From: Bacteroidales bacterium
GTDB taxonomy: Bacteria; Bacteroidota; Bacteroidia; Bacteroidales; WRLA01
Assembly: GCA_963676725.1 (NCBI GenBank)
Contig: OY781463.1
Span: forward strand, 2,786,398 to 2,850,397
Direction of reading: 5' to 3'
Length of the DNA stretch: 64,000 bases
A program made the position numbers and the translations under genes. The notes under the pieces were generated by a model. That model saw only the letters and a list, made by a program, of their open reading frames with translations. It was not told where the DNA came from and ran no database searches. Positions 11,600 to 41,035 of the stretch are shown here, one piece after another (positions within the stretch are counted from its first letter, which is position 1; each line of letters begins with the position of its first letter).

Positions 11600-11652
11600 A
11601 GTGGATGTATTGGTAATAGGGGGTTCTTATACACAGTAGTTAGGGCACATTT
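11600..11652 (+). other. attI-like site (crossover predicted at G/TT 11639); left boundary approximate
   Basis: GTTAGGGCAC complements the cassette end GTGCCCTAAC at 12759; no attC-type hairpin upstream. Confidence 0.75.
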
Positions 11653-11664
11653 AGAATAAAGAAA

Positions 11665-12753
11665 ATGAAACAATATTTAATTATAATTATATTGGTTTTG
11701 TCAGCATCTACAATATTCTCTCAAGAAGAAAAGTACTATAGTACAGAAGAATCTGATTATTACAAAAGAATTAAACACAAAAGGTTTCGTCCATTTTCCA
11801 AAAGACAAGCAAAATCACAGACTTTTGACTATATAAAAATACGACAGGACACTTCAAGAAACAACATGTATTCTGGTATTTATGATTATTACAAACCAAA
11901 TTCAAAGCCCATTGAATCAATAATAGGAAAGCATAATGGGACAACTTATCAGGTTTATGTCACACCTTCTTTAAATAGTGGAAATTGGGGATGCTGGCTT
12001 GAAATAGAAAATGAAAAAGAAAAAAAATCATATTACCTTGGCTTTACAATGGATTATTTCATCCACATTAAAGCAAAACAGACAATTCCCCTTGTAAAAA
12101 ATGATTCTATCATTCAAGTTCAATCAGCAATTGTTCGTCAAACCAAACCTGAAATCTTACCTATCGGTGGACCAGAGTTTAAATTAGTAAAAGATTATCT
12201 AATTATTGAAATCAATTTAAATCAAATTATAAAAGACTCAGACAATGACGGACTGACAGATATTGTTGAAGAAAGATTTCTAATGAATACAAAATCCGAA
12301 GATACTGATGGAGATGGCCTTAATGATTCATTTGATTCTAATCCAAGATTTAAGTCATGGGACACAGAAAAATCCAAACTGTATTCGTACCTGCTTAAAC
12401 ATCGACCAATGGATTCTGTGATTGTTGATACTAATATGATTTTCAAAGATGTTAATTTTCATAAGTACAAGAATCCAACCCTAATCGTTACAGATGAAGA
12501 ATCATTACAACATGTTAAACCACTGAATGTTAATGATTATTATATTATCATGTCAAAGTCTGAATATGATAAATGCAAAAAGAAATATCCAGTGGACATT
12601 AATAGGCTTTATGTTTCTCCTTTATTTAAGGTTGACAATGTTGGCAATTGCTATAAAATACATCTTAGCGGCGGATTTTGGGGAAATGACTATGTAATTT
12701 ACAAGTCAAATGGAAAATGGATTATTAAGAATATTGGTGGATACATAATATGA
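11665..12753 (+). CDS. Cassette gene: secreted protein with DxDxDG Ca-binding-like motifs
   Basis: Signal peptide; DSDNDGLTD and DTDGDGLND. Confidence 0.8.
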   Translation: MKQYLIIIILVLSASTIFSQEEKYYSTEESDYYKRIKHKRFRPFSKRQAKSQTFDYIKIRQDTSRNNMYSGIYDYYKPNSKPIESIIGKHNGTTYQVYVTPSLNSGNWGCWLEIENEKEKKSYYLGFTMDYFIHIKAKQTIPLVKNDSIIQVQSAIVRQTKPEILPIGGPEFKLVKDYLIIEINLNQIIKDSDNDGLTDIVEERFLMNTKSEDTDGDGLNDSFDSNPRFKSWDTEKSKLYSYLLKHRPMDSVIVDTNMIFKDVNFHKYKNPTLIVTDEESLQHVKPLNVNDYYIIMSKSEYDKCKKKYPVDINRLYVSPLFKVDNVGNCYKIHLSGGFWGNDYVIYKSNGKWIIKNIGGYII

Positions 12754-12758
12754 AAAAC

Positions 12759-12893
12759 GTGCCCTAACAAAAAATATAGTGCATTTGGCAGATAGTGCTT
12801 ATAATGAAGATTGGAGCAATAAAAAAATTAGTAGTAAATTGAAAATTTGGAGCGTAAAATGCCAAACGCCCCATATTCAAACCGTTATGCCCG
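12759..12893 (+). repeat. attC-like site 1
   Basis: GTGCCCTAAC..GCATTTGGCA//TGCCAAACGC..GTTATGCCCG. Confidence 0.88.
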
Positions 12894-13297
12894 ATTTTCT
12901 TTGCTGCGGTGTAGCGTTTTGGAAGGAAATTTTTGCGCAATTGTTCTTTGATACTTAAAAACCTGCAATCGCTTACAGCACTGGCCCACGCTTCGGAAGC
13001 AGGTTTTGCAGGACAAAAAAATTCGAGTTCCAATCCTAATTTTGTGATGAAACACGCAAAAATATTTTGATTTGCTATTGTACATTTGGGCTTTTTATTA
13101 ACTTTGGCTCTGGCCAGCGCATTTCAGCCAGCGCACAATGCCGACGCTATGTCCGGCGCACATTAAGAACCGGGCATAACCAAAGCTATTCCCCATAAGG
13201 GGTTTAATCGTTAAAACAAAGATTATGCAAGTGAAAATTATTAGTAGTAGATTGATAATTAGTGGTTTTGGAGTCCCTTACGTGGGATAGCTAGTCC
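12884..13297 (+). repeat. ORF-less cassette, copy 1
   Basis: 414-bp unit repeated at 13298 and 33292. Confidence 0.88.
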
Positions 13298-13307
13298 GTT
13301 ATGCCCG
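13171..13307 (+). repeat. attC-like site 2
   Basis: CGGGCATAAC..CATAAGGG//CCCTTACG..GTTATGCCCG. Confidence 0.88.
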
Positions 13308-13709
13308 ATTTTCTTTGCTGCGGTGTAGCGTTTTGGAAGGAAATTTTTGCGCAATTGTTCTTTGATACTTAAAAACCTGCAATCGCTTACAGCACTGGCC
13401 CACGCTTCGGAAGCAGGTTTTGCAGGACAAAAAAATTCGAGTTCCAATCCTAATTTTGTGATGAAACACGCAAAAATATTTTGATTTGCTATTGTACATT
13501 TGGGCTTTTTATTAACTTTGGCTCTGGCCTGCGCAGGCAGCAAACGCACAATGCCGACGCTATGTCCGGCGCACATTAGAACCGGGCATAACCAAAGCTA
13601 TTCCCCATAAGGGGTTTAATCGTTAAAACAAAGATTATGCAAGTGAAAATTATTAGTAGTAGATTGATAATTTGTGGTTTTGAAGTCCCTTACGTGGGAT
13701 AGCTGGAAC
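13298..13709 (+). repeat. ORF-less cassette, copy 2
   Basis: Tandem near-identical copy with boundaries exactly at GTT. Confidence 0.88.
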
Positions 13710-13719
13710 GTTGTGTGCC
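13583..13719 (+). repeat. attC-like site 3
   Basis: CGGGCATAAC..GTTGTGTGCC with the same arms as site 2. Confidence 0.88.
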
Positions 13720-13742
13720 ATATTAAGAGACCATGAATCACT

Positions 13743-14438
13743 ATGATAACGAGAGATTTTAAAACGGAGTTTGATAATTTGATTAAGGAAATAATTGCGC
13801 CGACTTTCAAAATGATTGGATTTAAAAAGAAAGCCAATAATTTCTATAAATCAACAAATGATTTGATTCAGATAATAAACGTTCAAAAAAGTCAATGGAA
13901 TTCAAAAGATGATATATCCTTTACTTTCAATATCGGATTTTTTAGTCCTGAGATTTTTTTAGAAACATGGGATAGACCAATACCTGATATTCCAAAAGAA
14001 TATGATTGTTTTATTAGTTTTCGTTCAGGATTTATAACTGATAAAAAGGATAAATGGTATGAATTGAATGAAAAGAACAACTACGACAAATTAAAAACTG
14101 CGATAAAATCTGACTTGCAAAAATCAGCAATTGATTTATTTGATAAGTATCAGACCTTGACTTCTCTAAAAGGATTGATTAATGATTATCCTGATTTACA
14201 AGTGACAATGGGAACAATTCCGAGATTTGTTTTTATGATGAAAACCGATTTGAAAAAAGATGCTTTAGATTTACTATTCACAGAGTATAAAAATGCACAG
14301 ATTCCTAAATCGAGTGTTTCAGTTATTAATTATCCAGACGGAAGGAGTGTTGAGACTAAATCAGAGCCTAAAATTAATAAGGGATATATAGACAGTTTGA
14401 TTAGGATTGCAAAGATGTATGATATTGAAATTAAATAA
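13743..14438 (+). CDS. Cassette gene: DUF4304-like protein
   Basis: GFKKKANNFY..INVQKSQWN..FTFNIG. Confidence 0.75.
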   Translation: MITRDFKTEFDNLIKEIIAPTFKMIGFKKKANNFYKSTNDLIQIINVQKSQWNSKDDISFTFNIGFFSPEIFLETWDRPIPDIPKEYDCFISFRSGFITDKKDKWYELNEKNNYDKLKTAIKSDLQKSAIDLFDKYQTLTSLKGLINDYPDLQVTMGTIPRFVFMMKTDLKKDALDLLFTEYKNAQIPKSSVSVINYPDGRSVETKSEPKINKGYIDSLIRIAKMYDIEIK

Positions 14439-14443
14439 AATAC

Positions 14444-14580
14444 GGCACACAACACGCGGTAAAAAACATTGGGGGTGCAGTGGGTCAGTCAACATACTGC
14501 CTCGCCCCAGCATCAGTAACGGTGGATACGAACGCAGCCCGTTCACCCCAACGATTTCTTACCGCCATCCGTTGTGTGTC
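14444..14580 (+). repeat. attC-like site 4
   Basis: GGCACACAAC..GCGGT..CATTGGGG//CCCCAACG..ACCGC..GTTGTGTGTC. Confidence 0.88.
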
Positions 14581-14594
14581 ATTAAAAAACAGAA

Positions 14595-15281
14595 ATGATA
14601 AATAAATTATATAATTTCCTTTCAAAGCCCTTCATAGTGATAGTCGTAATGATTGTTGCACCAATATTGTCTATTGCCGATAGAAATTTTGGGTACTTTT
14701 TTGGTCTTTTTATTGCTCTATTCTTGCTGTGGAAAAGTGGTTGGAATTGGGCGAAATTTGGGTTTGGGCAAAAAGTAAATCTCAGAACTATATTGAAAGG
14801 CTTATTACTTGCAATAGCTATATTTCTCATAATCGATATATGTATACAGCCATTTTTGGAAATATACTTTGGAAAGATTGATTTGAGTTCAATAGAGGAA
14901 ATAAGAGGGGATTTTGCCAGTTTTCTGCCTCTGTTTTTGATCATGTGGTTATTTGCCGCTTTTGGAGAAGAATTCTTGTTTAGTGGTTATTACATGAAAC
15001 ATCTCGCTGAATTATTTGGAGATTCTAACAAATCTTGGCTTATCTCAGCTATCGTACTTTCAGTTTACTTTGGAATTTCTCATAACTATCAAGGAACTTC
15101 TGGAATGATTGCCGTGGGATTAGCAAGTACAATATTCTTTTTTACATTTTACAAGTACAGAACTAATCTTGCTTTACTCGTATTTACACACGGTTTTTAT
15201 GATACGATTGGATTAACTCTAATCTACCTGAACAAGGACCGAATCTTCTATGATTGGGCCTTTCAACTTATAAATAAATGA
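14595..15281 (+). CDS. Cassette gene: CPBP/CAAX-type intramembrane protease
   Basis: GEEFLF, FGISH and HGFYD motifs; hydrophobic. Confidence 0.88.
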   Translation: MINKLYNFLSKPFIVIVVMIVAPILSIADRNFGYFFGLFIALFLLWKSGWNWAKFGFGQKVNLRTILKGLLLAIAIFLIIDICIQPFLEIYFGKIDLSSIEEIRGDFASFLPLFLIMWLFAAFGEEFLFSGYYMKHLAELFGDSNKSWLISAIVLSVYFGISHNYQGTSGMIAVGLASTIFFFTFYKYRTNLALLVFTHGFYDTIGLTLIYLNKDRIFYDWAFQLINK

Positions 15282-15284
15282 AAC

Positions 15285-16181
15285 GCCACACAATCGAGTA
15301 GGCTGCCGCTAGGCAGATTTGCCTAGCGGAGAACCTCTCACACCACTGTACGTACGGGTCTCGTATACAGCGGTTCGATACATATCGGCTTAAAGCTCTT
15401 TTCACCTTTAAACTTCTGCTCTAATTTAAAATAGGGCTAGTAAACTCGAGGTTTAGACCTCCCTATCGAATTTTAAGCAATGTATCGTTCAGTCCTTCAT
15501 CAACTTGTGAGTCCTCTGTCTTGTCCTATTCTTTCAGAGGGGACAGCTCGTTACTGTTGACTACTATGACTTCTGCTGACTTCTTGGCTTACAGAGAACA
15601 CGTCTGTTCCAAGACCTCCCCAGGTAAGAACCCTATCTTTCTACTTATGCCTGACACATCTACTAAGCAAGGATTATTGGTCAAGGGCTTTGCAAAGATG
15701 TGCTTGCTTACCCTCCCTGTTTAGCCTCATATGTGCTTTCTGTTTAGTTTACCCTGAGGTGCTCGAAGGGTCAGTACAAGTATTTGCAGTCCTGCTTCCT
15801 TCAGTGAATACCTCACGATAAACCACCTTGCAGCTTGCTAATCGGCTTTACCAACTTGCCGATAAGGGACTTTCACCCTCGAGATATTGTTCACCCACTT
15901 TTTGACTCTGAAAAATAAATTTGTATTTTTGACATTTTTCTAAAGCTTTCGGTGGGTGTGCTTAAGCTCATGCTGGGCACACACATGCTGTCATAAAACA
16001 TAAGGGCTACAGAGGTTTACGGGACTTCAGCGCATTTAATCAAGCCCGCCAAATCTTGCGATTTGACGCGTTGATTAAAAAGTTTAAATTTGTGTCTAAT
16101 CGCAACATTTGACTATGTGCAAACTTGATAGGGAAGCATTTCAAATCCCTTACGTTTCATACAGCAGAACCGTTGTGGGTA
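15285..16181 (+). repeat. attC-like site 5, interrupted by an intron
   Basis: GCCACACA|AC rejoined; CATAAGGG//CCCTTACG..GTTGTGGGTA. Confidence 0.85.
15293..15982 (-). ncRNA. ORF-less group IIC intron
   Basis: Starts GTGTGCCC, ends CTACTCGAT; domain V GAACCGCTGTATACG..CGTACAGTGGTGT; no RT ORF. Confidence 0.88.
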
Positions 16182-16201
16182 ATGCAAAAGCCTCGTGCAA
16201 A

Positions 16202-16591
16202 ATGACAGAGATAGAAATTAATATAAATAAATACGCTCAAAACAAGCTGACTGATTCCGAGATAATGGATTGGTTTGACCAGTTTGATTTGATAGGTCAA
16301 AAAGAGATTCGAGATAAGTTGATTATGTTCATGCAACAATCCCATCCAACTGACGAAATGATTTCTATAGCGATTCAGTCTGCACCGATTAAAGACACAA
16401 TGACACCTGTGGTACTTTTCAAAACCCAGAATTTTAAAATAGCGATTAACAAAATTGAGAAATTACCTGATTCTGAGTTGAGAAAATCATTTATAACCAT
16501 GTTGAGTATTTTCAAAACAGCAGATACACGTCGTAGAGAAACTGATTGTAAGAATGGATGTACTCATTTTTGGCATAATATAAAGGATTAG
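16202..16591 (+). CDS. Cassette gene: DUF5958-like protein
   Basis: ATG after the GTT core; C-terminal CKNGCTHFWHN. Confidence 0.75.
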   Translation: MTEIEININKYAQNKLTDSEIMDWFDQFDLIGQKEIRDKLIMFMQQSHPTDEMISIAIQSAPIKDTMTPVVLFKTQNFKIAINKIEKLPDSELRKSFITMLSIFKTADTRRRETDCKNGCTHFWHNIKD

Positions 16592-16830
16592 TGACTATGA
16601 AGTATAAATGGATTGCTTTATTATTTATTTCTGTTCTATTGACTGGCTGTTTTGGGTTATTTGATAGTGGAAGCAAACGGATTACTGGAAAATACATTGT
16701 AGTTTGGATTGACCTTCCAAGAAATCAAGGAATAGGCGAAGAAATTGAAGGAAGTCCAGGAAGTTCGATAGGTTTAGTCCCTGAGTATGTGTTTGCGGTT
16801 GGACACAATGAGGATTATATAATTGCAAAG
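16591..16830 (+). pseudogene. DUF3997-like lipoprotein truncated by IS1595
   Basis: LTGC lipobox; ORF runs into the IS end after DYIIAK. Confidence 0.75.
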
Positions 16831-17912
16831 GGTTATGTTGCAGTATAATGGAGAATTTTTATTACCTTTACGGTTATAAATACTGTTACTATGAATATAG
16901 ATGATTTACTTAAGAACCTGACTTCAGAAGAGAAAGAACAGTTATACACACTCCTAAAAAAGGACATTGGCATAACACCTCAATTGGATAAAATTAAATT
17001 CGAACTTAATCAGGGTCAAAAGATAGTATGTCCACACTGTCTTAGTAGCGACATTTATGGCCATGGCACATATAAAGGTAGAAAACGTTATAAATGCAAG
17101 CAATGCAAAAAAACATTTAATGATTTCACCGGAACTGCTGTTTCAGGCATTAAGAAAGTAGAAAAGTTTCAAGAGTATCTAGAACTTACGATTGAAAATT
17201 TGTCCATAAGAAAAGCCGCTAAAAAACTAGGGGTTAGCACCAAGACGATATTTGATTGGCGGCATAAACTATTGTCATCACTACAAACAATGAATGGAAT
17301 GGCATTATCAGGAATAGTTGAATGTGATGATAAACAGTTAGATATAAATGAAAAAGGCAAAAAGGGCTTGAATAGAAAACCTTATAAAAGGTCTAGTGAT
17401 AGAAAGAAAAAGCGAGGCATAAGTAATGACAAGATATCAATTATAGTGGCCACGGATCGAAAAGACAACCCTACTATGCGGATTGCAAAAGTAGGAAGGA
17501 TTGATGTAGAGAGTATTGAAAAAACCATTGGTGGTTTCATTGATCACAGCAATGTTCTTTGCTCTGATTCTCATCCATCCATAATATCTTGGGCAGGTAA
17601 AAAAGAACTCGAACACCACACATTCATTGCATCAAAACGACATGTAAAAAATAAATGTTATCATGTACAACATGTAAACTCTCTTGACAATTTATTTGAA
17701 AGATGGTTAAAGCCTTTTTATGGTGTAGCGACTAAATATCTGCAGCAATATCTAAATTGGTTTGTGTTTCATGAAAAAACAAAAAAGTCGTCAAACCCAA
17801 TGGCAGTCTTCACTAAAGCAATAATGTCAAACACGAATGCTATACGCGATTTTAGGTCAATCGAGAAAAAACACTTGGAATTAGATATTCCACTTTATTC
17901 TACAACATAACC
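16831..17912 (+). mobile_element. IS1595-family insertion sequence
   Basis: Imperfect terminal IRs GGTTATGTTG../..CAACATAACC; no target duplication. Confidence 0.88.
16891..17910 (+). CDS. IS1595-family transposase
   Basis: CPHC..CKQC Zn ribbon, HTH, VECDD, CSDS, HVQHVN. Confidence 0.92.
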   Translation: MNIDDLLKNLTSEEKEQLYTLLKKDIGITPQLDKIKFELNQGQKIVCPHCLSSDIYGHGTYKGRKRYKCKQCKKTFNDFTGTAVSGIKKVEKFQEYLELTIENLSIRKAAKKLGVSTKTIFDWRHKLLSSLQTMNGMALSGIVECDDKQLDINEKGKKGLNRKPYKRSSDRKKKRGISNDKISIIVATDRKDNPTMRIAKVGRIDVESIEKTIGGFIDHSNVLCSDSHPSIISWAGKKELEHHTFIASKRHVKNKCYHVQHVNSLDNLFERWLKPFYGVATKYLQQYLNWFVFHEKTKKSSNPMAVFTKAIMSNTNAIRDFRSIEKKHLELDIPLYSTT

Positions 17913-17966
17913 TTTTGATTTTGAGAGCCTCAAACTCTTGTATCAATCCGTAATAATTTAAACATC

Positions 17967-18566
17967 ATGATCGAAAATTATTCAATTGAAGATTTCAAAG
18001 ATTTTCTAAAAACATATATTACTTTACCTGAAAATGAGTGGAACCAGATAAAGTCAGAGTTCGAACTACACGTTTACCAAAAGAATGAAATGCTTTTGGA
18101 AGAAGGTTTCGTTTGCAGGTATTTTTATTTTTTCAATAAAGGATTAGTCCGTTTTTGCTGTAACATCGATGGTGAAGATATAACAAAGACTTTTTGTAAG
18201 GCTCCTTATTGTTTTACGTCTAAAATAAGTTTCCGCAATCAAACACCTGCGCGTGAAGCTATCCAGGCACTTGAAGAAACAGTTGTTTGGCGAATATCCT
18301 ATGAGCAATACAAAAGGCTTGAACAAATACCATCCTGGAATATTTTTATGCGAAAGCTGATGAATGAAATTCAGGAATTTCTTGAAAATCATTTGTTGGA
18401 GTCTAAAATTTTAACCGCTGAACAGTATTACGATAAGTTACTTCAGCGATTCCCTGCTGATTTTATGCAGAAAATACCACTGAAACATTTGGCTTCGTTT
18501 TTAGGCATTGCACCACAATCTATGAGTAGAATAAGAAACAACTTGCACGAAAATAGAAGAAGTTAA
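17967..18566 (+). CDS. Crp/Fnr-family regulator
   Basis: cNMP-binding-like domain; LASFLGIAPQSMSRIR HTH. Confidence 0.9.
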   Translation: MIENYSIEDFKDFLKTYITLPENEWNQIKSEFELHVYQKNEMLLEEGFVCRYFYFFNKGLVRFCCNIDGEDITKTFCKAPYCFTSKISFRNQTPAREAIQALEETVVWRISYEQYKRLEQIPSWNIFMRKLMNEIQEFLENHLLESKILTAEQYYDKLLQRFPADFMQKIPLKHLASFLGIAPQSMSRIRNNLHENRRS

Positions 18567-18631
18567 CATAGGTGAATTTTTATCTCTGCCTTTTGATTGA
18601 ATTTTGTATCAGATAAATAGGATACAAAATC

Positions 18632-19558
18632 ATGACAAGTCTAAAAGCAAAAATAATGATTGGGCTAATGCGAAATCGGCATTTGTTCAAAGGCAGGTTA
18701 AGAAAAGAGACGCAGAACAAAAGTATTGAAGCTGTATTGAAGTTTCGGGCGGCATGTGAAAAGGGCGCGGAACGTTTTGGAAAACTTCCTGAAGGCATTA
18801 GCATTAAACAGGAAGTAATTCATACCATCATTTCCGAGTGGATAATACCTGAAAATGCACTTGAAAAGAAACTGATTTTTTATGTGCATGGTGGTGGCTA
18901 TGTTTCAGGATCATGTAACGACCATCGGAATCTTGTATCCAAAATAGCACGCAGTGCAGGCATCAACACCTTGCTTTTCGAATACGGGTTAGCTCCTGAG
19001 CATCCTTTTCCTGCTGCTATAAATGATTCGGTTAACATATACAGCGCAGTGCTCGAAAAAGGATACAAAGCCGAAAACATGGTAATGATGGGAGAATCGG
19101 CTGGAGGCGGACTTTGTTTGGCGACACTTTTAGCACTTCGCGATAAAAACATACCACTACCCAAAGCTGCGGTAGCTATTTCACCATGGACTGATTTAAG
19201 TTGCTCAAACGAAACATACTTTACTAAAAACAAGGTTTCGTTAGCTCCTCTTAATAGTTGGAATGTTTTTAGCCATTACTATGTTGCGAAAAGTGAGGTT
19301 CGGAATCCCTACATTTCACCACTCTTTGGCAATTTGGAAGGGCTTCCGCCACTTTTTATCAACGCAGGCAATAGTGATGAACTGTTCGACGATGGACGGA
19401 AGTTCGCTGAAAAAGCAAAACAGGCAGGTGTTGATGTGTTTTTCAGAGAAGGACATGGCATGGTTCATTGTTATCCTATGATGGCACCTTTCTTTCCTGA
19501 GGCTACCGAAGCCATGAATGAGATTATCGAATTCATTCACAAACACCTTTCAAAATAA
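18632..19558 (+). CDS. HSL-family alpha/beta hydrolase (esterase)
   Basis: HGGG, LAPEHPFPAA, GESAGG. Confidence 0.92.
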   Translation: MTSLKAKIMIGLMRNRHLFKGRLRKETQNKSIEAVLKFRAACEKGAERFGKLPEGISIKQEVIHTIISEWIIPENALEKKLIFYVHGGGYVSGSCNDHRNLVSKIARSAGINTLLFEYGLAPEHPFPAAINDSVNIYSAVLEKGYKAENMVMMGESAGGGLCLATLLALRDKNIPLPKAAVAISPWTDLSCSNETYFTKNKVSLAPLNSWNVFSHYYVAKSEVRNPYISPLFGNLEGLPPLFINAGNSDELFDDGRKFAEKAKQAGVDVFFREGHGMVHCYPMMAPFFPEATEAMNEIIEFIHKHLSK

Positions 19559-19572
19559 ACAATCCATTTTTA

Positions 19573-20460
19573 TTGATTATGCAGCAGATAGAACAACATA
19601 TTAATACACAGTTAAAATACAATTCAGGTAAAAACCTGTTTGCCCAACGAGATGGATTATTTCGTTTTATGGCCATACCTGATTCTATAATGCAGAATTT
19701 AAAAGACATAACCAAACTAGAAGAAAATGCTCTAATAGGTATGGCCACTGCTAAATCGTTGGAAGCTTTTTATAAGTTGAACCAGTATTACTACTTCAGC
19801 AATAGTGATAAAGAGAAGCTAAAAGCTATTTATGCTAATTTGTTTCAACATTTAAAAGGACATAATGATTTATCGATGTATGAAGAAAAACATTACAATA
19901 ACCTAAGAAGATGGCTGGCGGAAACGAACCCATTTGCCCTGAAATTATATGCTGATCAAAACGAAGAACTTCAGGAGGTAGTTTGCGAAGAGTATAATGC
20001 TCTGCTGCAGTTAGATTTATTACACATAGAACTGGATGGCATCGAGGAGCCAGTCCTTGATATCGGTTGTGGTAAAAATGGTGAATTGGTTAAATTTTTA
20101 AGAAAATCCGGAATTGAAGCTTTTGGCTTTGACAGGAGTATAACCAGCTCAGAATTTTGTAATGATTCCGATTGGTTCGATTATCATTACGGATATGAGA
20201 AATGGGGAACGATTATAAGTAATCTCAGCTTTTCTAATCATTTCAACCACCATCATCTCCGTTCAGACGGCAATTATGTTGCCTATGCTGAAGCCTACAT
20301 GCAAATATTTTATTCCTTAAAACCTGGAGGTACTTTTCATTATGCGCCCTCACTGCCTTTTATCGAAAGGTTTCTGGATAGAGAGAAATTTACGGTTTAC
20401 ACACATAAAGTGTTCAATACCGATTACAAAACAACCCGTGTTCGAAAGCAAAACACGTAG
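19573..20460 (+). CDS. Class I SAM-dependent methyltransferase
   Basis: VLDIGCG and LKPGG. Confidence 0.85.
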   Translation: MIMQQIEQHINTQLKYNSGKNLFAQRDGLFRFMAIPDSIMQNLKDITKLEENALIGMATAKSLEAFYKLNQYYYFSNSDKEKLKAIYANLFQHLKGHNDLSMYEEKHYNNLRRWLAETNPFALKLYADQNEELQEVVCEEYNALLQLDLLHIELDGIEEPVLDIGCGKNGELVKFLRKSGIEAFGFDRSITSSEFCNDSDWFDYHYGYEKWGTIISNLSFSNHFNHHHLRSDGNYVAYAEAYMQIFYSLKPGGTFHYAPSLPFIERFLDREKFTVYTHKVFNTDYKTTRVRKQNT

Positions 20461-20469
20461 AAAACCAAA

Positions 20470-21381
20470 TTGACTAATACAATGAAAAAACAAGACAATA
20501 TGCAAAAGTTAACTAATTATATAGGATGGGCTCTCATCGTTGCAGGGCTTTTATTTCTGACAAATGTATTAAAGGCTCAGACTGGTTACCCGCAGTTGGT
20601 TGCATCGAAAGATGGAACGCCGATTTCTTATGAAGTATATGGTGAAGGTCAGCCAACACTTGTGTTTGTGCATGGCTGGAGTTGCGATTCCAGGTATTGG
20701 CAAAAACAAGTCCCCTATTTCTCTAAAAACTATAAAATCATTTTGATAGACCTTGCAGGGCATGGTCATTCGGGAACAACCCGCGAAGATTATACCATGA
20801 AGGCATTTGGAGAAGATGTACAGGCGGTTGTTGAGGAAACAGGAAGCCAAAATGTGATACTTATCGGCCACTCTATGGGCGGAACTGTTATTGCCGAAGC
20901 AACAAGGTTGATGCCGAATCGAGTAATAGGTCTTATTGGTGTGGATGCCAATGAAAACATTGAATACCCGTTAAACCAAGAGGAGTTTGAGGGCATGATG
21001 GCTCCATTTCGTGAGAATTTCCAAGCCGGAACACGTCAGTTTGTTCAGCACATGCTTATTCCTGCTGGCGACACTCTTCTTAATGAGTGGATTATGTCAG
21101 ATATGTCTGCGGCTCCGCAAAGTATTGCTTTAAGTGCCATGAAAGAACTATTAACACAAAGTATTACCGGTGAAGCAGCCACAATTTTTGACGACATTAA
21201 AGTGTCGGTTATGGTTGTAAAATGTGATATGTGGCCTGTAAATTACGAAGGAAATCGACGCCATATGGAATCTTTTGAGGTTATTGAGTTGAAAAATACC
21301 GACCACTTTTTAATGCTGAACCGTCCCGAGGAATTTAATAAAGCACTGGAAAAGGCAATTGCTAACATATTAGAATATTAA
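20470..21381 (+). CDS. Secreted alpha/beta hydrolase
   Basis: VFVHGW, DLAGHG, GHSMGG. Confidence 0.9.
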   Translation: MTNTMKKQDNMQKLTNYIGWALIVAGLLFLTNVLKAQTGYPQLVASKDGTPISYEVYGEGQPTLVFVHGWSCDSRYWQKQVPYFSKNYKIILIDLAGHGHSGTTREDYTMKAFGEDVQAVVEETGSQNVILIGHSMGGTVIAEATRLMPNRVIGLIGVDANENIEYPLNQEEFEGMMAPFRENFQAGTRQFVQHMLIPAGDTLLNEWIMSDMSAAPQSIALSAMKELLTQSITGEAATIFDDIKVSVMVVKCDMWPVNYEGNRRHMESFEVIELKNTDHFLMLNRPEEFNKALEKAIANILEY

Positions 21382-21383
21382 AA

Positions 21384-22205: not shown

Positions 22206-22226
22206 CCTGAATAAAAAAATTTTTCT

Positions 22227-22999
<773 letters not shown>

Positions 23000-23003
<4 letters not shown>

Positions 23004-27352: not shown

Positions 27353-27416
27353 GTAATCATTTCGAACAACATAGATATTTTTGTTTAAACATAACAAACT
27401 TTTAAAGAACAATACT

Positions 27417-30531: not shown

Positions 30532-30545
30532 CAGAATTTTTAAAA

Positions 30546-31463: not shown

Positions 31464-31606
31464 AAAGGAAATGAAAAAACGGGGGCTAATGTGTATAATT
31501 CATAAGGGTTTCAGAGATTTTCTAGCGTTGTTGCCCGCTTCAATTTTAGGTGGTAACTTGAAAGGTTTGAATCCCGCCATCCCTTACGAAATCATACACT
31601 TGCCGT

Positions 31607-33289
31607 CAGACTGTCTAAAAACCCCAAAACTTCCACCCAAAATTGTTGATAACATTCCGACTTATCAACAGCTATAAATGCTTGTTTATTAGTATATTCA
31701 TAGCATGAAATACATGATAGGAAAAGATCGGAACCAAGTATCAATTTTCCCCATTTCTTTGGATGAATCTATCCATAAAGATCATGAGGTGCGGATTATT
31801 GATCTTTTTGTAGACAGCCTTGAATTATTAGAAATGGGCTTTCGTGTAGATTTTATGGAGAACGGAAGACCTGCTTATCATCCCAAAGACCTTCTAAAAC
31901 TCTTTATTTATGGCTACCTGAACAGAACACGCTCCTCACGTGAGCTCGAAAAAGAATGCACACGGAACATCGAAGTGATTTGGTTGCTCAAAGGCCTAAA
32001 GCCCGACCATAATACGATTTCCAACTTCCGCCGCGACCATTCCAAAGCCATAAAGAATGTGTTTCGTGCCACGGTATGCATAGCCAAGAACTTAGAACTA
32101 ATCGGCGGGAAACTGCTTGCCGGAGACAGCACCAAACTCCGGGCACAGAATTCCAAGAAGGCCAATTATAATGCAAAAAAGATTGAGCGCCATTTGACCT
32201 ATATCGACAACAAACTTGCTACTTACCAGGAGCAGTTGGCCAAAGCTGACGGGGACAATCAAGCGCTGATACAGCAAGAGATTGAGAAACACAAAGAGCG
32301 CAAGCAATTCTACCATGATATAGAACACCAATTAGAAGAATCCGGCGAAACCCAGGTATCCACAAGCGATCCGGAAAGCAGGCAAATGATCACACGCAAC
32401 AATATCACCGAAGTAGCCTACAATGTACAAACAACGGTCGATTCAGCCCATATGATCCCCATCGATTATAAAGTGACCAATGAAAACGACAGCAAAGCAA
32501 TGGGCGATATGCTCCACCGCAGTAAAAGCATCATTGGCCACAATAATTTTACCGCCCTCTACGATAAAGGCTACCATACAGGCAGCGAGTTTCAAACCGC
32601 CCACGATTTAGGCATAAATGTACTGGTTGCCATTCCTAAAGTAGCGGCCAATGCCCCCGATCCTAACTACAATGTAGAACACTTTCGATATGATAAAGAC
32701 AAGGACTGTTATCATTGTCCCCAAGGCCATGAGATGCACACAACAGGTAAATGGCACCAGGCGAAAACCTATCAATTTAAGCGTTATACAACTCGCCAAT
32801 GCCTGAGCTGTCCGGTAAAAGACAAATGCTCTAAGGCTAAATACGGCAAGGCAATACAACGATCTGAATATCAAGAATATATAAATACAAATAAGGAAAA
32901 CATAGAGAAAAACCTGGATTACTACCGCCGACGACAGGCAATTGTGGAACACCCATACGGCACCATCAAGCGTCAATGGGGATTTAGCTACATAATGACC
33001 AAACGCAGTAAACAACGCGCCTCGGCGGATGTAGGATTTATATTTATTGCTTATAATTTACGTCGTATTATGAATATCCTTGGCATTCATGTATTTAAGC
33101 AATACCTCATTGCTTTATCTGTTCTAATAGCCTTCATTTTGGCTTCCATATATGCGTTTTGCCGAAGGATAAAAAGCATTGCTGCCCAAAGGTATCGAAA
33201 AATAGATGCACTTAGAACGCAAATATTTGCTAAATTTATGCCGTATTTAGGTACAATTTAAAAGAGAACGGAGGTTTTAAGACAGACTG
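31607..33289 (+). mobile_element. IS1182-family element, copy 1 (1683 bp)
   Basis: IRs CAGACTGTCTAAAAACC / GGTTTTAAGACAGACTG; CCGT duplication. Confidence 0.92.
31705..33261 (+). CDS. IS1182-family transposase
   Basis: GRPAYHP, SSRELE, PDHNTISNFR, DKGY, YRRRQAIVEHPYGTIK. Confidence 0.93.
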   Translation: MKYMIGKDRNQVSIFPISLDESIHKDHEVRIIDLFVDSLELLEMGFRVDFMENGRPAYHPKDLLKLFIYGYLNRTRSSRELEKECTRNIEVIWLLKGLKPDHNTISNFRRDHSKAIKNVFRATVCIAKNLELIGGKLLAGDSTKLRAQNSKKANYNAKKIERHLTYIDNKLATYQEQLAKADGDNQALIQQEIEKHKERKQFYHDIEHQLEESGETQVSTSDPESRQMITRNNITEVAYNVQTTVDSAHMIPIDYKVTNENDSKAMGDMLHRSKSIIGHNNFTALYDKGYHTGSEFQTAHDLGINVLVAIPKVAANAPDPNYNVEHFRYDKDKDCYHCPQGHEMHTTGKWHQAKTYQFKRYTTRQCLSCPVKDKCSKAKYGKAIQRSEYQEYINTNKENIEKNLDYYRRRQAIVEHPYGTIKRQWGFSYIMTKRSKQRASADVGFIFIAYNLRRIMNILGIHVFKQYLIALSVLIAFILASIYAFCRRIKSIAAQRYRKIDALRTQIFAKFMPYLGTI

Positions 33290-33291
33290 CC

Positions 33292-33705
33292 GTTATGCCC
33301 GATTTTCTTTGCTGCGGTGTAGCTTTTTTGAAGGAAATTTTTGCGCAATTGTTCTTTGATACTTAAAAACCTGCAATTGCTTACAGCACTGGCCCACGCT
33401 TCGGAAGCAGGTTTTGCAGGATAAAAAAATTCGAGTTTCAATCCTGATTTTGTGATGAAACACGCAAAAATATTTTGATTTGCTATTGTACATTTGGCCT
33501 TTTTATTAACTTTGGCTCTGGCCTGCGCATTTCAGCCAGCGCACAATGCCGACGCTATGTCCGACGCACATTAAGAACCGGGCATAACCAAAGCTATTCC
33601 CCATAAGGGGTTTAATCGTTAAAACAAAGATTATGCAAGTGAAAATTATTATTAATAGATTGATAATTAGTGGTTTTGGAGTCCCTTACGTGGGATAGCT
33701 GGAAC
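33292..33705 (+). repeat. ORF-less cassette, copy 3, including attC-like site 8 (33579-33715)
   Basis: Near-identical to 12884-13297. Confidence 0.88.
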
Positions 33706-33754
33706 GTTAGCACCAATGTAGCCAAAACGATAGCACAACTTAAAAATTAGAGAT

Positions 33755-34864
33755 ATGAAGACTAAATTTATTTTCACCCTGATTTTAATATTTCCGACTT
33801 TGAGTATTTTCTCACAGGATTTAGTATTTAATCATGGAGGAGCCCTAAATGATGGAGTTTATGAAACAACACCCTTAACTCGATTTAATGAGATTTCTTG
33901 GAAAACTGAGTTAAAAGGGAAAGGGAATGAGGATTGTATTATTCACAGAGACGTGATTTACACGACCGCAAGAAAATACAACAGGGAGACTAAAACTCAT
34001 AAAAGCTATATTTATGCAATTAAGGCACATAGTGGAGAAGTAATTTGGTTAGACTCCTTAAACGGTAGAGTGTCAACTCCAAATATTAAGGATTCGATAC
34101 TGTATTATGGCGTTGATGAGCAGGACGGCAGACAATATGCAATAAATAAAGATAACGGTAAGATAATTTGGAGCATAACATCAAGGTATGCTGCATGTTG
34201 GCAACCTGCAATAATTGGTGACAAAAATTATTTTGGAAGCCACGGTGATAGGTGGTATGTTGTAAATAACATAACTGGTGATTTGATTCTTAAGGATACA
34301 ATTGACGGGGGTATTTGTTGTCGTCCTTCGATTTTAGATACGATGCTGTACTTTGTTGATAGGAAAGGATTACTTCATGCTTACAACACAAAAATTGATA
34401 AAGATATTTGGACTTTTAATTCGGGCGCTGGCTCAAATAATGCACCTGCAATTTATGAAGGCAAAGCATTTATGATAAATAAAAGTGGAGAAATATTTGC
34501 AATAGATTTAAAAACAGGACAGAAAATCTGGTCTTATAAAACAGGAGATACGATGTTTCGTTCACCTGCTGTTAAGGATAAAACGGCAACAGTGATTACA
34601 ACAAATGGATTGATATTTGCCTTTGATACTGAAAATGGTGAAATTAAGTGGCAACAAGAAAAGAAAGGACTTGGATATACGAACACGTCAATTGTTGACA
34701 ATATCGTTTATGTAGGTTGTGCAGATAATCATCTTTATGCTTTTGATTTGTATACGGGAAAAGAGATTTGGAATTTCAAAGCAGATTCTAAAGTTAATAC
34801 TCCATTGATTGATAATGAAACAGTATATTTTACAAGTGGAGAATATTTATACTCAATAAAGTAA
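33755..34864 (+). CDS. Cassette gene: PQQ-like beta-propeller (BamB-like) protein
   Basis: Repeated AxDxxTGxxxW motifs; signal peptide. Confidence 0.88.
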   Translation: MKTKFIFTLILIFPTLSIFSQDLVFNHGGALNDGVYETTPLTRFNEISWKTELKGKGNEDCIIHRDVIYTTARKYNRETKTHKSYIYAIKAHSGEVIWLDSLNGRVSTPNIKDSILYYGVDEQDGRQYAINKDNGKIIWSITSRYAACWQPAIIGDKNYFGSHGDRWYVVNNITGDLILKDTIDGGICCRPSILDTMLYFVDRKGLLHAYNTKIDKDIWTFNSGAGSNNAPAIYEGKAFMINKSGEIFAIDLKTGQKIWSYKTGDTMFRSPAVKDKTATVITTNGLIFAFDTENGEIKWQQEKKGLGYTNTSIVDNIVYVGCADNHLYAFDLYTGKEIWNFKADSKVNTPLIDNETVYFTSGEYLYSIK

Positions 34865-35000
34865 ACACTGGTGCTAACACGCGGTCATAAAACATTGGGG
34901 GCGAAGTGGTTATTCGAGCTTTGGTTCTCGCATCAAAGTTCATCGTACCTTGATAGAGAAGTAGCTCCGAAATCCCCAACGATTTTATACCGCCATCCGT

Positions 35001-36683: not shown

Positions 36684-36761
36684 CCGTTGTGTGTAAGTTA
36701 ATAACCTAACTGTAAAAGGAAAATATACGAGCTGAAAATAGAATTTTGACAATTACGAAAA

Positions 36762-37274
36762 ATGACTAAAAGTATTATTAATAATGATGTGATTTTTGAA
36801 AAGTTATCAGATGAACATAGGACATCTGTAATGGATATTTTTAATTTTTATATCGAGAATGAGTTTTCTGCATATCCAGAGGAGAAACTTAATTATGATT
36901 ACTATGATAATTTTTTAACCATATCAAATAAGTATCCCGCATTTGTAATCAAAGTAAAGGACAGAATTGTAGGATTTTGTTTTCTCAATTCTTACAATCC
37001 TGCCTCAAGTTTTAAGGAAACTGCCCAGATTACATATTTCATCGACATAGACTTTAAAGGAAAAGGGATTGGAAAAATGGCTTTAAATAAACTGGAAATT
37101 GAAGCTAAAAAACATGGCATTGAAAATATATTAGCAAATATTGCTTCTGTCAATAAGGAAAGTCTTGCTTTCCATTCAAAAAACGGATTCATAAAGTGTG
37201 GTGAATTTGAGAATATAATTAAGAAGAAAAATAAGAAATTTAATATTATCTGGATGCAGAAAAAATTGAATTAG
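36762..37274 (+). CDS. Cassette gene: GNAT N-acetyltransferase (phosphinothricin acetyltransferase-like)
   Basis: KGKGIGK and NKESLAFHSKNGF. Confidence 0.88.
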   Translation: MTKSIINNDVIFEKLSDEHRTSVMDIFNFYIENEFSAYPEEKLNYDYYDNFLTISNKYPAFVIKVKDRIVGFCFLNSYNPASSFKETAQITYFIDIDFKGKGIGKMALNKLEIEAKKHGIENILANIASVNKESLAFHSKNGFIKCGEFENIIKKKNKKFNIIWMQKKLN

Positions 37275-37401
37275 GTAAAACCTACACACAACATTTTGTA
37301 CAAGTAATGGCAGGTAATGTGTTAAATATCAAGGTTTGTAGCCCGCTCAAACTGCGTAGCGGTTTGACAGTAAATTACCACGCAATCTGCCACTACTCAT
37401 A

Positions 37402-39346
37402 GTGTGCCAAGAATCAACCACGGCAATAAACAGGTTGAATGCTGTAAATAAGATGATAGTAGGTCTATCAGGGTCGTTGTATAGGCGATGGCTTTAAACC
37501 ACCTAAAGATGCTGCAGTAAAGAGCTGTGGTGTTGAGCGTTTAGGAGAATCCTGTCCAAGAGGCAGGCAGGTATGGATAAAGGAGATGAACGAAAGTGAA
37601 CCATTGATGAGGTGTCGAGACGTTGCGTTACATCCAGTCAAAAGCTACGGAGTATGAGACGGAGTGAAAAAAGGTATGAAAAAAAAACATATCAATTGCA
37701 GAAGTTACCTATTTACTTTCTGTAAGGCTGGCGGCATTCAGATGGCATGAACTTTATCTAGGCTTATTTATGGAACTTGGGAACCTGGATATTGATGATA
37801 GATTGCAGGATGCTACCGCCAAAGGATTCGCAGGCAGTACGAAGGGAAATGCACGATAAGATCAACTTAGAGGCAGAATACCAATGCAATATTCAGGGGC
37901 AGACTAATCCGTAGTAGTGATGAAGTATCTGTAATGGAAACGGAGCGAAGGGATTAGGTTATACAGTATCATAACATTAAAACAACTCAGAACGAGGATG
38001 ACTTTATGGAATGAAACAAAATCGATACCGATAAGCCACTCAATGATTTGGGAGGCATATAAGAAAGTTAGGGCCAACAAAGGGAGTGCAGGAGTGGACG
38101 ATTTAGGCATGGAGGAATATGATTCTAGCAAAAGGAAACACCTGTACAAACTATGGAATCGTATGGCATCGGGGAGTTATTTTCCGCCAGCAGTCAAAGA
38201 AGTGGAAATACCAAAGAAAGATGGTAAAGTCAGGAAATTGGGAATACCCACAATCAGCGACAGGGTGGCACAGATGGCTATTAAAATGTATATCGAACCA
38301 AGGTTTGAGGAAATATTCAGTTCAAATTCTTATGGTTATCGACCGAAAAAGAATGCGCACCAAGCATTGCAAAAGGTACGGGAAAACTGTTGGAAGTCCA
38401 ACTGGGTAATAGATTTAGATATAAAAGGGTTCTTTGACAATATTAGTCATGCAAAACTGATGTTAGCAGTAGAGAAGCATGTACCGGAGAATTGGATAAA
38501 ACTCTACATAAAACGATGGCTCACAGCCCCAGTACTCAAAAAGACAGGAGAACTGATCACAAAGGAAGGTAAGGGAACGCCACAGGGAGGAGTTATAAGT
38601 CCTCTTCTGGCGAATTTATTTCTGTACTATGGCTTTGATAAATGGTTAGAACAAACTGACAAAACAGTGGACTACACAAGATATGCCGATGATGTGATAG
38701 TGCACTGTAGGAGTAAACAACATGCAGAACACATATTAAAGCGAATCAACCAACGGATGAACGATATTGAATTGGAGTTGCATCCAGAGAAAACAAAAAT
38801 TGTTTATTGTAAGGATTATCGGAGGAACGAAAAACATCCAGAATCTAAGTTTGATTTTTTGGGTTACTCTTTCCAACCCCGAACAACCAAATCAAAGAGG
38901 AACAATGGACTGTTTCTCGGGTTTGACTGTGCTATTAGTATAAGTTCAAGAAAGCGTATAGCTGACAAACTAGGAGAACTGGAAGTAGAGAGGATGACCT
39001 TTAAAAGTGTAGTAGGCATTGCCCAAAAATTGAATCCAATGATTCGAGGGTGGATACAATATTACGGTAAATTTAGGATATCCTCATTGCATACAGTTTT
39101 TAGAGGGTTAAATAAGCGTTTAACAAGGTGGGCAAGAAAACGGTATAAACGTTATAAGACAAGTATAAAGCGAGCATATAAATGGTTAGCAAGAGTACAG
39201 GAACAATATCCTTATTTATTCTACCATTGGCAGTTAGGATTTGTCTATTAATTAAGTATTTTTGTATAACAAGAGCCGTATGATGGGAGACTATCACGTA
39301 CGGTTCTGTGAGAGGCTCGGGGTGAAATTCCCCTTGCCTACTCGAT
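37402..39346 (+). mobile_element. Group II intron, class D (RmInt1-like), apparently intact
   Basis: 5' GTGTG; domain V GAGCCGTATGATGGGAGACTATCACGTACGGTTC; 3' CTACTCGAT. Confidence 0.92.
37998..39251 (+). CDS. ltrA: Group II intron RT/maturase without endonuclease domain
   Basis: LYKLWNRMASGSYFPP, GTPQGG, RYADD, KTKIVYCKD. Confidence 0.95.
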   Translation: MTLWNETKSIPISHSMIWEAYKKVRANKGSAGVDDLGMEEYDSSKRKHLYKLWNRMASGSYFPPAVKEVEIPKKDGKVRKLGIPTISDRVAQMAIKMYIEPRFEEIFSSNSYGYRPKKNAHQALQKVRENCWKSNWVIDLDIKGFFDNISHAKLMLAVEKHVPENWIKLYIKRWLTAPVLKKTGELITKEGKGTPQGGVISPLLANLFLYYGFDKWLEQTDKTVDYTRYADDVIVHCRSKQHAEHILKRINQRMNDIELELHPEKTKIVYCKDYRRNEKHPESKFDFLGYSFQPRTTKSKRNNGLFLGFDCAISISSRKRIADKLGELEVERMTFKSVVGIAQKLNPMIRGWIQYYGKFRISSLHTVFRGLNKRLTRWARKRYKRYKTSIKRAYKWLARVQEQYPYLFYHWQLGFVY

Positions 39347-39579
39347 CAATTTACCGTTGTGTGCAATACACCAAGACTGAAAAGGCAGGTTAATTTATCG
39401 AGTAATGGATAAAAACAAATAGCTAGTTAAAATAAGAGAAAAGGGAAACATAACTATCAAGCAATAAGCTTTGATGTTTATTGAAATCTAAATTGACTCA
39501 AATTAGATTATAGAACTTATAAATAAAAAAGTAATTACAGAGTAGTTAAATTTATTTGGAAATATAAAAATTAGAAATA

Positions 39580-40113
39580 ATGAGAAAAATCAAATTTATG
39601 TTGTTCTTTTTAACTGTATTGGTTTTTTCCAGTTGTGAAAATATGGTCAGGATTGATGAGATTGATAATGTCATATCAAAAAATGACCTTAACATACAAT
39701 TGAAAATTGATGTCGATAATGATTTTGAAATCCAAAAAGTTTTGGAAAATGAAAATAGTAATAGTCAATATCTGAAAATTGATGTTGATAATAAGTTTTC
39801 AATAAGAGGCAAAACGGATATTGAAATCAAAAAGAAATACAGACTGTCAATTACTTTAAAGAACATTAATACAAATCCTGTTATAATGTATTCTTTCTGG
39901 AAAGGACTTAAAACATCAGTGAGAAATTATACATTGGCAGGTGAAAATGGAAATCCACCGACATCAAAAACTCAGGACATATATAATGACTGGGTAACGT
40001 TTGATGATTTGTTTGAAGCTCAAGAAGGAGAAGATTCATTTATGCTGACTCTTTTTTGTGAAAGTGGCACATTTTACATAAAGGATATAAAAATTGAAGA
40101 AGTAAAAGAATAA
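39580..40113 (+). CDS. Cassette gene: hypothetical lipoprotein
   Basis: FSSC lipobox. Confidence 0.75.
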   Translation: MRKIKFMLFFLTVLVFSSCENMVRIDEIDNVISKNDLNIQLKIDVDNDFEIQKVLENENSNSQYLKIDVDNKFSIRGKTDIEIKKKYRLSITLKNINTNPVIMYSFWKGLKTSVRNYTLAGENGNPPTSKTQDIYNDWVTFDDLFEAQEGEDSFMLTLFCESGTFYIKDIKIEEVKE

Positions 40114-40118
40114 AGTAC

Positions 40119-40312
40119 TGCACACAATAAAATGTAAATGTAATGCGGGTTTCAGAGGGTATTTCAACCGCAGTTCTTCGTTGCAACACCGCCAATTCGT
40201 CTTTAACGATTGACGGAAAATTTGAAATATTGAATAAACGAATTGGCTCCGTGCAGAATTGAAAGTTCATCACTTTCAATCCCGCACTCCACTTACATAA
40301 ACGTTGTGGGTA
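40119..40312 (+). repeat. attC-like site 11
   Basis: TGCACACAAT..ATGTAA..TGCGGG//CCCGCA..TTACAT..GTTGTGGGTA. Confidence 0.85.
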
Positions 40313-40371
40313 ATGGTAGGAGAGCCAACTACACAGAAATAATTTGAAAAGAAATATTGAGATTAATAAAA

Positions 40372-40965
40372 ATGGGATTAGAAAAACAAGGGGCAAAACC
40401 AACTGGATTAATAGGGAAAATTATCGGAAGATTGATGAATAAATTTCATACTTCTATGTACACTGATTATTTTAATACTAAAGATATACCTGACAATTTT
40501 AGAATTCTTGACATTGGATGTGGTGGTGGAAAATTTTTAAACTATTTGTCTCAAAGAAGTGACGGATTTAATCTATGGGGAATTGACCACTCAAAAGAAA
40601 TGATTGATTTATCAAGTCAATTAAATAGTGAGGATGTTAAAAAAGGACGATTGAAATTGTTATGTGGCTCGGTTTCTAAAATCGAAATTGAAAATAATTC
40701 CATTGACTTAGTTACTGCATTTGAGACTATTCAGTTTTGGCCAGACATTGAAAATGCGTTATCTGAAATATTTAGGATTTTAGATAATGGAGGGCGATTC
40801 TTAATAATAAATAGATATCCAAGAGAAGGAACAAAATGGTGGAATCTGGCAAATATTAAATCAGAGAAAGATTATAAAACAAAATTGGATATTGCTGGAT
40901 TTATTGACATTTCAATCGATTTGAATTTTAAGGATGGTTGGATAATCGTAGAAGGAGTAAAATAA
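40372..40965 (+). CDS. Cassette gene: class I SAM-dependent methyltransferase
   Basis: KPTGLIG, ILDIGCGGG; ATG 40372 preferred. Confidence 0.9.
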   Translation: MGLEKQGAKPTGLIGKIIGRLMNKFHTSMYTDYFNTKDIPDNFRILDIGCGGGKFLNYLSQRSDGFNLWGIDHSKEMIDLSSQLNSEDVKKGRLKLLCGSVSKIEIENNSIDLVTAFETIQFWPDIENALSEIFRILDNGGRFLIINRYPREGTKWWNLANIKSEKDYKTKLDIAGFIDISIDLNFKDGWIIVEGVK

Positions 40966-40974
40966 TAAACCACA

Positions 40975-41035
40975 TACCCACAACAATTAAGCATCGTTTT
41001 CCGGCCTGAGCCGGAATATGTGCTTTGTGTTGAAC
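40975..41035 (+). repeat. attC-like site 12 (short, last in the array)
   Basis: TACCCACAAC..AAGCA..TTCCGGC//GCCGGAA..TGCTT..GTTGAAC. Confidence 0.65.

Follow-up and report, generated by a model that had tools for sequence, protein, structure and literature searches.

In the window analysed here, a stretch of 64,000 nucleotides from a Bacteroidales bacterium (assembly GCA_963676725.1, contig OY781463.1, positions 2,786,398 to 2,850,397 of the forward strand), a gene encoding a tyrosine recombinase of 485 amino acids is directly followed, on the same strand, by a row of 12 cassette units (11639-40984, forward strand), and the question raised by this locus is why the ends of these cassettes carry a mispair at one fixed position. 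In the circular form of a cassette the two ends pair over about 14 bp with an A opposite a C at the eleventh base (+11), which on the bottom strand is a T opposite a G. On balance, from the comparison of sequences, we favour the hypothesis that the ends of each cassette form the outer arm of a hairpin, and that the mispair, mirrored on the inner arm, would be a strand-selecting landmark for a tyrosine recombinase which is not an IntI and is fused to HARP-like modules.

All seven start/end pairs quoted in the preliminary description of this DNA are present, at 11639, 12884 (with copies at 13298 and 33292), 13710, 26743, 33706, 36686 and 39356, and the cassettes are bordered by R''-L''-L'-R' hairpins with AAC/GTT, of which the window holds 11. 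An A occupies +11 in 12/12 cassette starts, and the reverse-complemented ends have a G at position 11 in 11/12 and at position 12 in 1/12; three of the 12 units are copies of one cassette, leaving 10 distinct. Likewise, on the inner arm an A faces a C in all 11 complete attC sites. The cassette at 40303, at first regarded as an exception, belongs to a class that comprises 28 of 143 homologous cassettes, its end having one extra base (40974) inside the mispair. A further cassette at 14571, the end of which is split by an intron, had been overlooked in the original list and also has the mispair, in addition to a mismatch at +9. The unit 16172-26624 is a hybrid with ends unmatched at positions 6-15, and no start matching the cassette that ends at 26624 was found anywhere in the genome.

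An unconstrained position 11 in homologous arrays had been named as the observation that would speak against a fixed mispair; this was examined in several sets of loci, and position 11 is not free. In test A, which is blind to +11, GTT...AAC pairs differing at no more than one of 13 positions were collected and the position of the mismatch was tallied in 80 genome loci, 80 metagenome loci and 40 loci from an even sample of the phylum; these 40, of which 35 are of at least 5 kb, were picked for long contigs among the 107 matches listed. Downstream of the recombinase in the genome loci the mismatch was located at +11 in 99 of 119 pairs, 96 of them A/G (A in the start, G in the reverse-complemented end), and in the upstream control in 4 of 34 pairs, none of them A/G. 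The metagenome loci displayed a mismatch at +11 in 50/65 downstream pairs (47 A/G) and in 2/16 upstream pairs, and in the phylum sample 62 of 121 pairs, from 18 of the 35 loci of at least 5 kb, were A/G at +11. Cassettes with this signature also accompany the homologs of Nitrospirota, Spirochaetota, Atribacterota and two genomes of archaea. Locus L166 holds no integron and was excluded from the analysis.

In test B the sites were defined by the inner hairpin alone, with filters (C before GTT, A after AAC) taken from 59 training sites and independent of +11. This stricter detector, which superseded a first loose hairpin scan with many false sites, misses some real sites, several in the window among them, and returned 241 sites in 1,295,068 downstream bases versus 0 in 707,554 upstream. 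Between neighbouring sites lie 143 distinct cassettes from 35 loci, which are not fully independent, and their starts and ends match at positions 4-9 in 131-138 cassettes, at position 10 in 94, at position 11 in 0, and at positions 12, 13, 14 and 15 in 115, 110, 101 and 80, with background beyond. The invariant element is the A, a T on the bottom strand, which stands at +11 in 143/143 starts with a perfect pair in 0/143, and G is its usual but not its sole partner (134/143): G is found in register in 106 ends, an additional base (T in 27) displaces it by one position in 28, and the other 9 have neither. Covariation of the neighbouring bases around the fixed mismatch, as first described, is borne out by positions 5-10, which match per cassette in 575 of 636 cases (shuffled mean 216, maximum 264), and when ends are shuffled among 106 cassettes the matches at positions 12-14 fall from 285/318 to 143. 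The upstream controls, together with the 112 different sequences that occur at positions 4-10, speak against chance and shared ancestry as origins of the pattern, and both were rejected.

As a classical control, 40 stretches beside IntI genes above the TIGR02249 cut-off and one class 1 integron were analysed, yielding 98 cassettes from 24 loci. In these the ends match at +8 in 70 cassettes and at +9 to +11 in 51-54, with background from +12, and A/G at +11 is found in only 5/98; the A/G signature is specific to the family of the window recombinase relative to classical cassettes. A GTTRRRY core is present in 43/98 classical versus 13/143 window-family cassettes, and the median pairing run, +11 ignored, is 8 (class 1 cassettes) versus 14. 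The contrast previously drawn with a classical pairing of about 7 bp and a GTTRRRY core had been slightly overstated, since classical ends also pair partly beyond 7 bp. Both the window and the homologous arrays support the proposal of a distinct site grammar in which a G:T pair is fixed on the bottom strand.

This mispair grammar is two-fold symmetric, as the same mispair occurs on the inner (L) arm, where base 15 after AAC is an A facing a C in 221/240 sites. Read outward from the 6-base centre, position 2 of both arms is T, position 9 is A or C, position 10 is A and position 11 is mostly T, the common pattern being N-T-(A/T/G)-N5-(A/C)-A-T, and the A at mirror position 10 is found in 235/240 R arms and 229/240 L arms. 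On the bottom strand each arm consequently presents a T ten bases 5' of the presumed cut point of a subunit. An extra base stands beside the mispair in 28/143 R arms (T in 27) and 42/240 L arms (T in 33), the extra T of both arms being on the G strand. A left-arm bulge is present in 9/240 sites of the family, and a detector of extrahelical bases returned only 3 sites over 1.30 Mb of homologous arrays. In 67/69 classical sites the base 16 positions past AAC is an A preceded by one bulge, which places the last extrahelical base, the flipped-out T23 (numbering of classical extrahelical bases as given in the consulted part of PMC5027507) in the same helix register as the L-arm mispair described here.

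The array, which is interrupted by three group II introns, two IS1182 copies and one IS1595, and its recombinase comprise the following features:

10026-11483, forward: tyrosine recombinase, 485 amino acids, without the IntI additional domain (profile, structure-alignment and homolog comparisons)
10047-10265, forward: predicted HARP-like module 1 of the recombinase (AlphaFold model, fold comparison)
10350-10574, forward: predicted HARP-like module 2 of the recombinase (AlphaFold model, fold comparison)
11500-11507, forward: TAnnTTTG box, candidate cassette promoter (enrichment in recombinase-to-attI gaps)
11622-11652, forward: putative attI, crossover presumably in the GTT at 11639 (consensus of 40 first-cassette junctions)
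11639-12883, forward: cassette 1, 362-residue open reading frame (ORF); mispair A11649/C12758; attC1 12762-12890
12884-13297, forward: cassette 2, no sense-strand ORF of at least 80 residues, three TAnnTTTG boxes; A12894/C13170; attC2 13174-13304
13298-13709, forward: cassette 3, copy of cassette 2; A13308/C13582; attC3 13586-13716
13710-14570, forward: cassette 4, DUF4304; A13720/C14443; attC4 14447-14577
14571-16171, forward: cassette 5, CAAX-protease-like; A14581/C15284; a second mismatch at +9, intron within R''
15293-15982, reverse: group II intron remnant without reverse transcriptase, within R'' of attC5 (RF02001)
16172-26742, forward: hybrid unit 6, IS1595 transposase and genes without attC; start A16182, end C24553, arms unmatched
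24562-26622, reverse: group II intron, reverse transcriptase in three pieces, within R'' of attC6
26743-31604, forward: cassette 7, five ORFs; A26753/C31480; R'' ends in AAT and its spacer is 3 bases short
31607-33289, forward: IS1182 copy between GT and T of attC7, 4-bp duplication
33292-33705, forward: cassette 8, third copy of cassette 2; A33302/C33578; attC8 33582-33712
33706-34998, forward: cassette 9, PQQ-type propeller; A33716/C34868
35001-36683, forward: IS1182 copy between GT and T of attC9
36686-39355, forward: cassette 10, GNAT acetyltransferase; A36696/C37282
37402-39346, forward: group II intron, its maturase intact, inserted in attC10 between L' and the spacer
39356-40302, forward: cassette 11; A39366/C40118; R'' ends in AAT; attC11 40122-40309
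40303-40984, forward: cassette 12, methyltransferase, extra-base class, no L arm after it; A40313/C40973, added base 40974

The recombinase scores 220.8 bits against NF040815 (cut-off 220) and stays below the IntI model TIGR02249 (181.4 bits versus a cut-off of 265, with a split match). Compared with VchIntIA (2A3V) it lacks about 40 residues, and the alignment of the two is split at that point; the span around patch III measures 38 residues (at most 43 in 72 aligned family members) versus 80 in 14 IntI, while R339, K364, H428, R431, H454 and Y463 are invariant in 50 homologs. The structure predicted by AlphaFold (pLDDT 89) resembles XerA and VchIntIA and has two N-terminal alpha/beta modules; in this model the fold neighbours of module 1 are the UvsW N-terminus (VIA Z 6.3) and the N-terminal half of XPB (Z 6.2), and that of module 2 is XPB (VIA Z 5.5). 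Of the 74 homologous modules, 20 gave a weak match to Pfam HARP (PF07443) at E<=0.05, the best at 2.8e-5 and module 1 of the window not being among them, and the best PDB match of the modules was the HARP domain of SMARCAL1 (4O66, E 0.075). We read the modules as HARP-like, any role assigned to them being putative. One to three of them are present in 116/135 intact homologs and none in 19/135 ORFs, 3 of which have one just upstream. A 126-bp fragment upstream of the gene (9298-9423) is 76% identical to recombinase residues 257-298.

Homologs of this recombinase were found in 88/251 sampled genomes of the phylum (E<=1e-45), and its closest named relatives are from Bacteroidales. In the same genome a second copy, 98% identical, heads another array, further sites are located elsewhere, and two separate XerC/D-like genes are also present. 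A quick tree places IntI inside the recombinase family on a long branch (2.26) with 97% support; because the tree is quick and the composition of IntI differs, no order of descent is claimed. In the same family a well-supported clade (L174, L175, L181, L182, L196 and L200) has homologous recombinases and no signature cassette downstream, and these enzymes are possibly domesticated.

How such an enzyme might use the mispair can be outlined as follows. The bottom strand would fold and be cut in AAC, as in a classical attC, and every subunit of the recombinase would depend on a T located ten bases 5' of the point where it cuts. If the T:A pair were perfect, both folded strands would carry this T, and G would be the sole partner that pairs with the T on the bottom strand and yet leaves a C, in an A.C mismatch, at the position read on the top strand. 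By pairing the T on one strand and removing it from the other the wobble would set the strand and hence the orientation of the cassette, in place of the flipped-out bases of classical attC. The G:T pair is kept paired in 92/106 folded circular forms, and since nearly every cassette has the same A and C, T opposite G recurs at most hybrid junctions of the array; after insertion the T would persist in attI. Contact with T24 inactivates the L-bound subunits of IntI, according to the accessible part of PMC2727003; a symmetric mark cannot do so, and the asymmetry between L and R would therefore have to come from the GTT and the uneven spacers. We consider the +11 mispair a likely recognition landmark in this sense.

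Several observations weigh against this reading. That the recombinase acts on these sites is presumed from its adjacency, and in 17 of the 35 long loci no signature cassette follows the homologous recombinase. Among pairs perfect at positions 1-10, 15/234 are A/A at position 11, about half of which are expected by chance. The T at the mirror position is weak in the left arm of attI (21/40), and three of 40 first cassettes (L027, L074 and L101) have a perfect pair at +11. In a rAID-like locus of Bacteroides ovatus (L081), to which we return below, an A is found at +11 in 11/11 cassette starts, but of the 10 ends that are readable only 2 carry a G at position 11 or 12. Finally, of 240 sites only 63-114 are paired at positions 5-10 of the hybrid junction, and the outer arm would thus be largely open during excision.

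Of the explanations that compete with a requirement for the T itself, the one that survives best, although we regard it as rather unlikely, is that the mispair is recognised by its shape, the T of the wobble being flipped out, or the DNA being bent at it, possibly by the HARP-like modules, as a stand-in for T23. Besides the shared register with T23 and the extra base, mostly T, beside the mispair in both arms, it draws on the presence of modules in most intact recombinases and on their fold neighbours, the N-terminal domains of UvsW and XPB, which resemble the mismatch-recognition domain of MutS. In the rAID-like locus, moreover, the recombinase has a diverged module (HHalign 61%) and the array is mostly without G. 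Nevertheless, Z values of 5.5-6.3 are middling, the module-free loci L023 and L024 still hold 12 A/G cassettes, and a symmetric mark could not reproduce the inactivation of L-bound subunits by T24 binding.

It is improbable that the mispair acts solely on folding energy, favouring the bottom strand as has been published for classical sites, with no protein reading it. The bottom strand does fold lower in 103/106 circular forms, by 4.2 kcal/mol on average, classical sites have 1.24 versus 0.39 G:T mispairs per bottom versus top strand (in the section of PMC5027507 consulted), and further unfixed A/G pairs occur on the L arm (90/240 at position 10); a fixed position, an invariant T and mirror symmetry are, however, all unneeded for such a bias. 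Even less probable is that the making of cassettes, in which ends are copied from each other around a shared attC body, has left the pairing and the mispair behind as a scar with no part in recombination. An identical attC body is indeed found behind different genes with different outer arms, which are consequently cassette-specific, but the mispair of the L arm, at the mirror position, is itself part of the shared body, and a scar would be expected to decay, whereas the G is kept in 134/143. That A and C are expression signals (ribosome binding, stop-codon context) facing each other by accident is scarcely credible: stop codons often lie 11-17 bases before the cassette end and may overlap positions 12-14, yet their distance varies, the pair is kept in cassettes without a sense ORF and the L arm is far from gene ends.

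Independently of the enzyme involved, the cassettes are shuffled at GTT. Contigs of four runs, one of them perhaps the source sample, contain pieces that start or stop at the borders of cassettes (11638-11643, 12766-12770, 12883-12890, 14448 and 14569-14575), one contig of other runs joins attI straight to the cassette at 13298, and one cassette is present in three copies in the window array and once in the second array; the contigs do not identify the enzyme responsible. No end-to-start joint of a circular cassette was seen in the contigs, which drop rare forms. The recombinase-adjacent junction is conserved in sequence across 40 loci, and a TAnnTTTG box, which we take to be the Bacteroidota -7 element, occurs in 16/40 of the recombinase-to-attI gaps versus 2.7 expected. 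Directly left of the crossover many of the 40 attI junctions have a palindrome of about 24 bp, degenerate in the window. The ORF-less cassette of about 414 bp (12884-13297, 13298-13709, 33292-33705 and once in the second array) contains three TAnnTTTG boxes, which makes it a possible promoter cassette.

The sites are also entered by other mobile elements. The 1683-bp IS1182 element has 8 copies in the genome (31607-33289, 35001-36683 and six more), all at ACGT or CCGT. Six of them interrupt an evident attC between GT and T, a seventh is at a likely attC, and the eighth lies in inverted orientation within a site resembling attI, so that the element looks like an attC-targeting one. Two related group II introns (15293-15982 and 24562-26622) enter R'' from the bottom strand, as group IIC-attC introns do, and a third, different one (37402-39346) enters the top strand at the end of L'.

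Concerning the remaining content of the window, 16172-26742 holds IS1595 and eight genes without attC (hydrolases, methyltransferases, a condensation domain, cNMP-binding), and cassette 7 opens with a pair of cNMP-binding and hydrolase genes similar to a pair inside that region. A second tyrosine recombinase together with helix-turn-helix, DUF3987 and DUF6371 genes is located at 2159-8943, a gene content that suggests that the integron is carried on an integrative element. At 44602-55676, repeated blocks with near-identical N-termini and presumably RHS-like core motifs are each followed by a small ORF, and this region is probably a cluster of polymorphic toxins and immunity genes.

Among published systems the closest relative of the one described here is rAID-1 of Bacteroidales (Ross et al., bioRxiv 10.1101/471110; see also PMC12247911), which in the portions of these sources available to us is characterized by a XerD-like recombinase more than 44% identical to BF9343_RS08045, co-oriented low-GC genes and repeated intergenic motifs 'reminiscent of integrons'. 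The window likewise has at least 2 co-oriented downstream genes of at most 41% GC, and its recombinase is 40.5% identical, over residues 206-477, to the enzyme of the rAID-like locus of B. ovatus, which falls inside the window recombinase family on the tree. In contrast, the sites of that locus are short, begin with ATT instead of GTT and are mostly without G; immunity families were not found by a Pfam scan among the window array ORFs, some of which belong to no family; and the consulted portion of 10.1101/471110 gives no hairpin structure, mispair or mechanism. We read rAID-1 as a putative subfamily of the window system. In Riemerella anatipestifer, the part of PMC13148043 at hand describes an unexplained homology-independent capture in which the integrated gene is accompanied by 27 bp of upstream and 140 bp of downstream sequence, the downstream part with an attC-like fold; these lengths fit a cassette of the window family and would make a link possible, although no recombinase is named in that part. 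On plasmid pHH1107 (L082:6700-8240), tet(X3) lies behind tnpF, a short member of the window recombinase family matched in about 50 Acinetobacter plasmids, and the ends of this cassette have an A at +11 and a G at 11, with positions 5-7 unmatched.

What appears to be new in comparison with published work is the fixed, mirrored mispair grammar of the family, the integron-like organisation itself being already known. In the literature consulted, mostly without subscription papers and supplements and including the available parts of PMC8618304, 10.1101/2022.02.06.479319, PMC2095811 and PMC3409536, no description of fixed mispairs or of this site grammar was found, nor, mostly without subscription papers, a paper joining integron, HARP, tyrosine recombinase, cassette and attC. 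With somewhat less than even confidence, we propose that these loci represent a second, widespread kind of integron, in which a Xer-like, HARP-fused recombinase acting on folded single strands reads two symmetric G:T wobbles, and that this kind includes rAID-1, explains the homology-independent capture in Flavobacteriales and may be near the ancestor of IntI. IntegronFinder 2, in the part consulted, reports one complete integron in Bacteroidetes proper; set against a recombinase present in 88 of 251 genomes, this figure implies that a large gene-capture system may go unannotated, and the +11 rule provides a clean detector for such sites. The system also bears on the origin of integrons from Xer-type enzymes and, as tet(X3) behind tnpF has the same end signature, on the origin of resistance genes.

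With XerCD/dif and the archaeal XerA the window system shares its recombinase core, the best sequence and fold matches of which are XerA (4A8E and 5HXY), and its sites recall dif, which has symmetric arms around a 6-base centre; the substrates differ in being imperfect hairpins in an array. With classical integrons it shares the order of recombinase, putative attI and a row of mostly single-gene cassettes, the R''-L''...L'-R' hairpins with an AAC/GTT crossover triplet and a more stable bottom strand, the entry of group II introns into R'' and an L-arm T in the register of T23. Unlike them, it has a recombinase co-oriented with the array, without the IntI additional domain and with HARP-like N-terminal modules, and sites nearly devoid of a left-arm bulge, with two mirror-image G:T pairs, an outer arm paired to about 14 bp and spacers of 6 and 7-10 bases. 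Recombination of single-stranded attC is thought to need both the additional domain of IntI and extrahelical bases, and the window system seems to be without either; it would be integron-like in its working, yet it is not an IntI integron, the additional domain and the extrahelical bases being the two features that set it apart.

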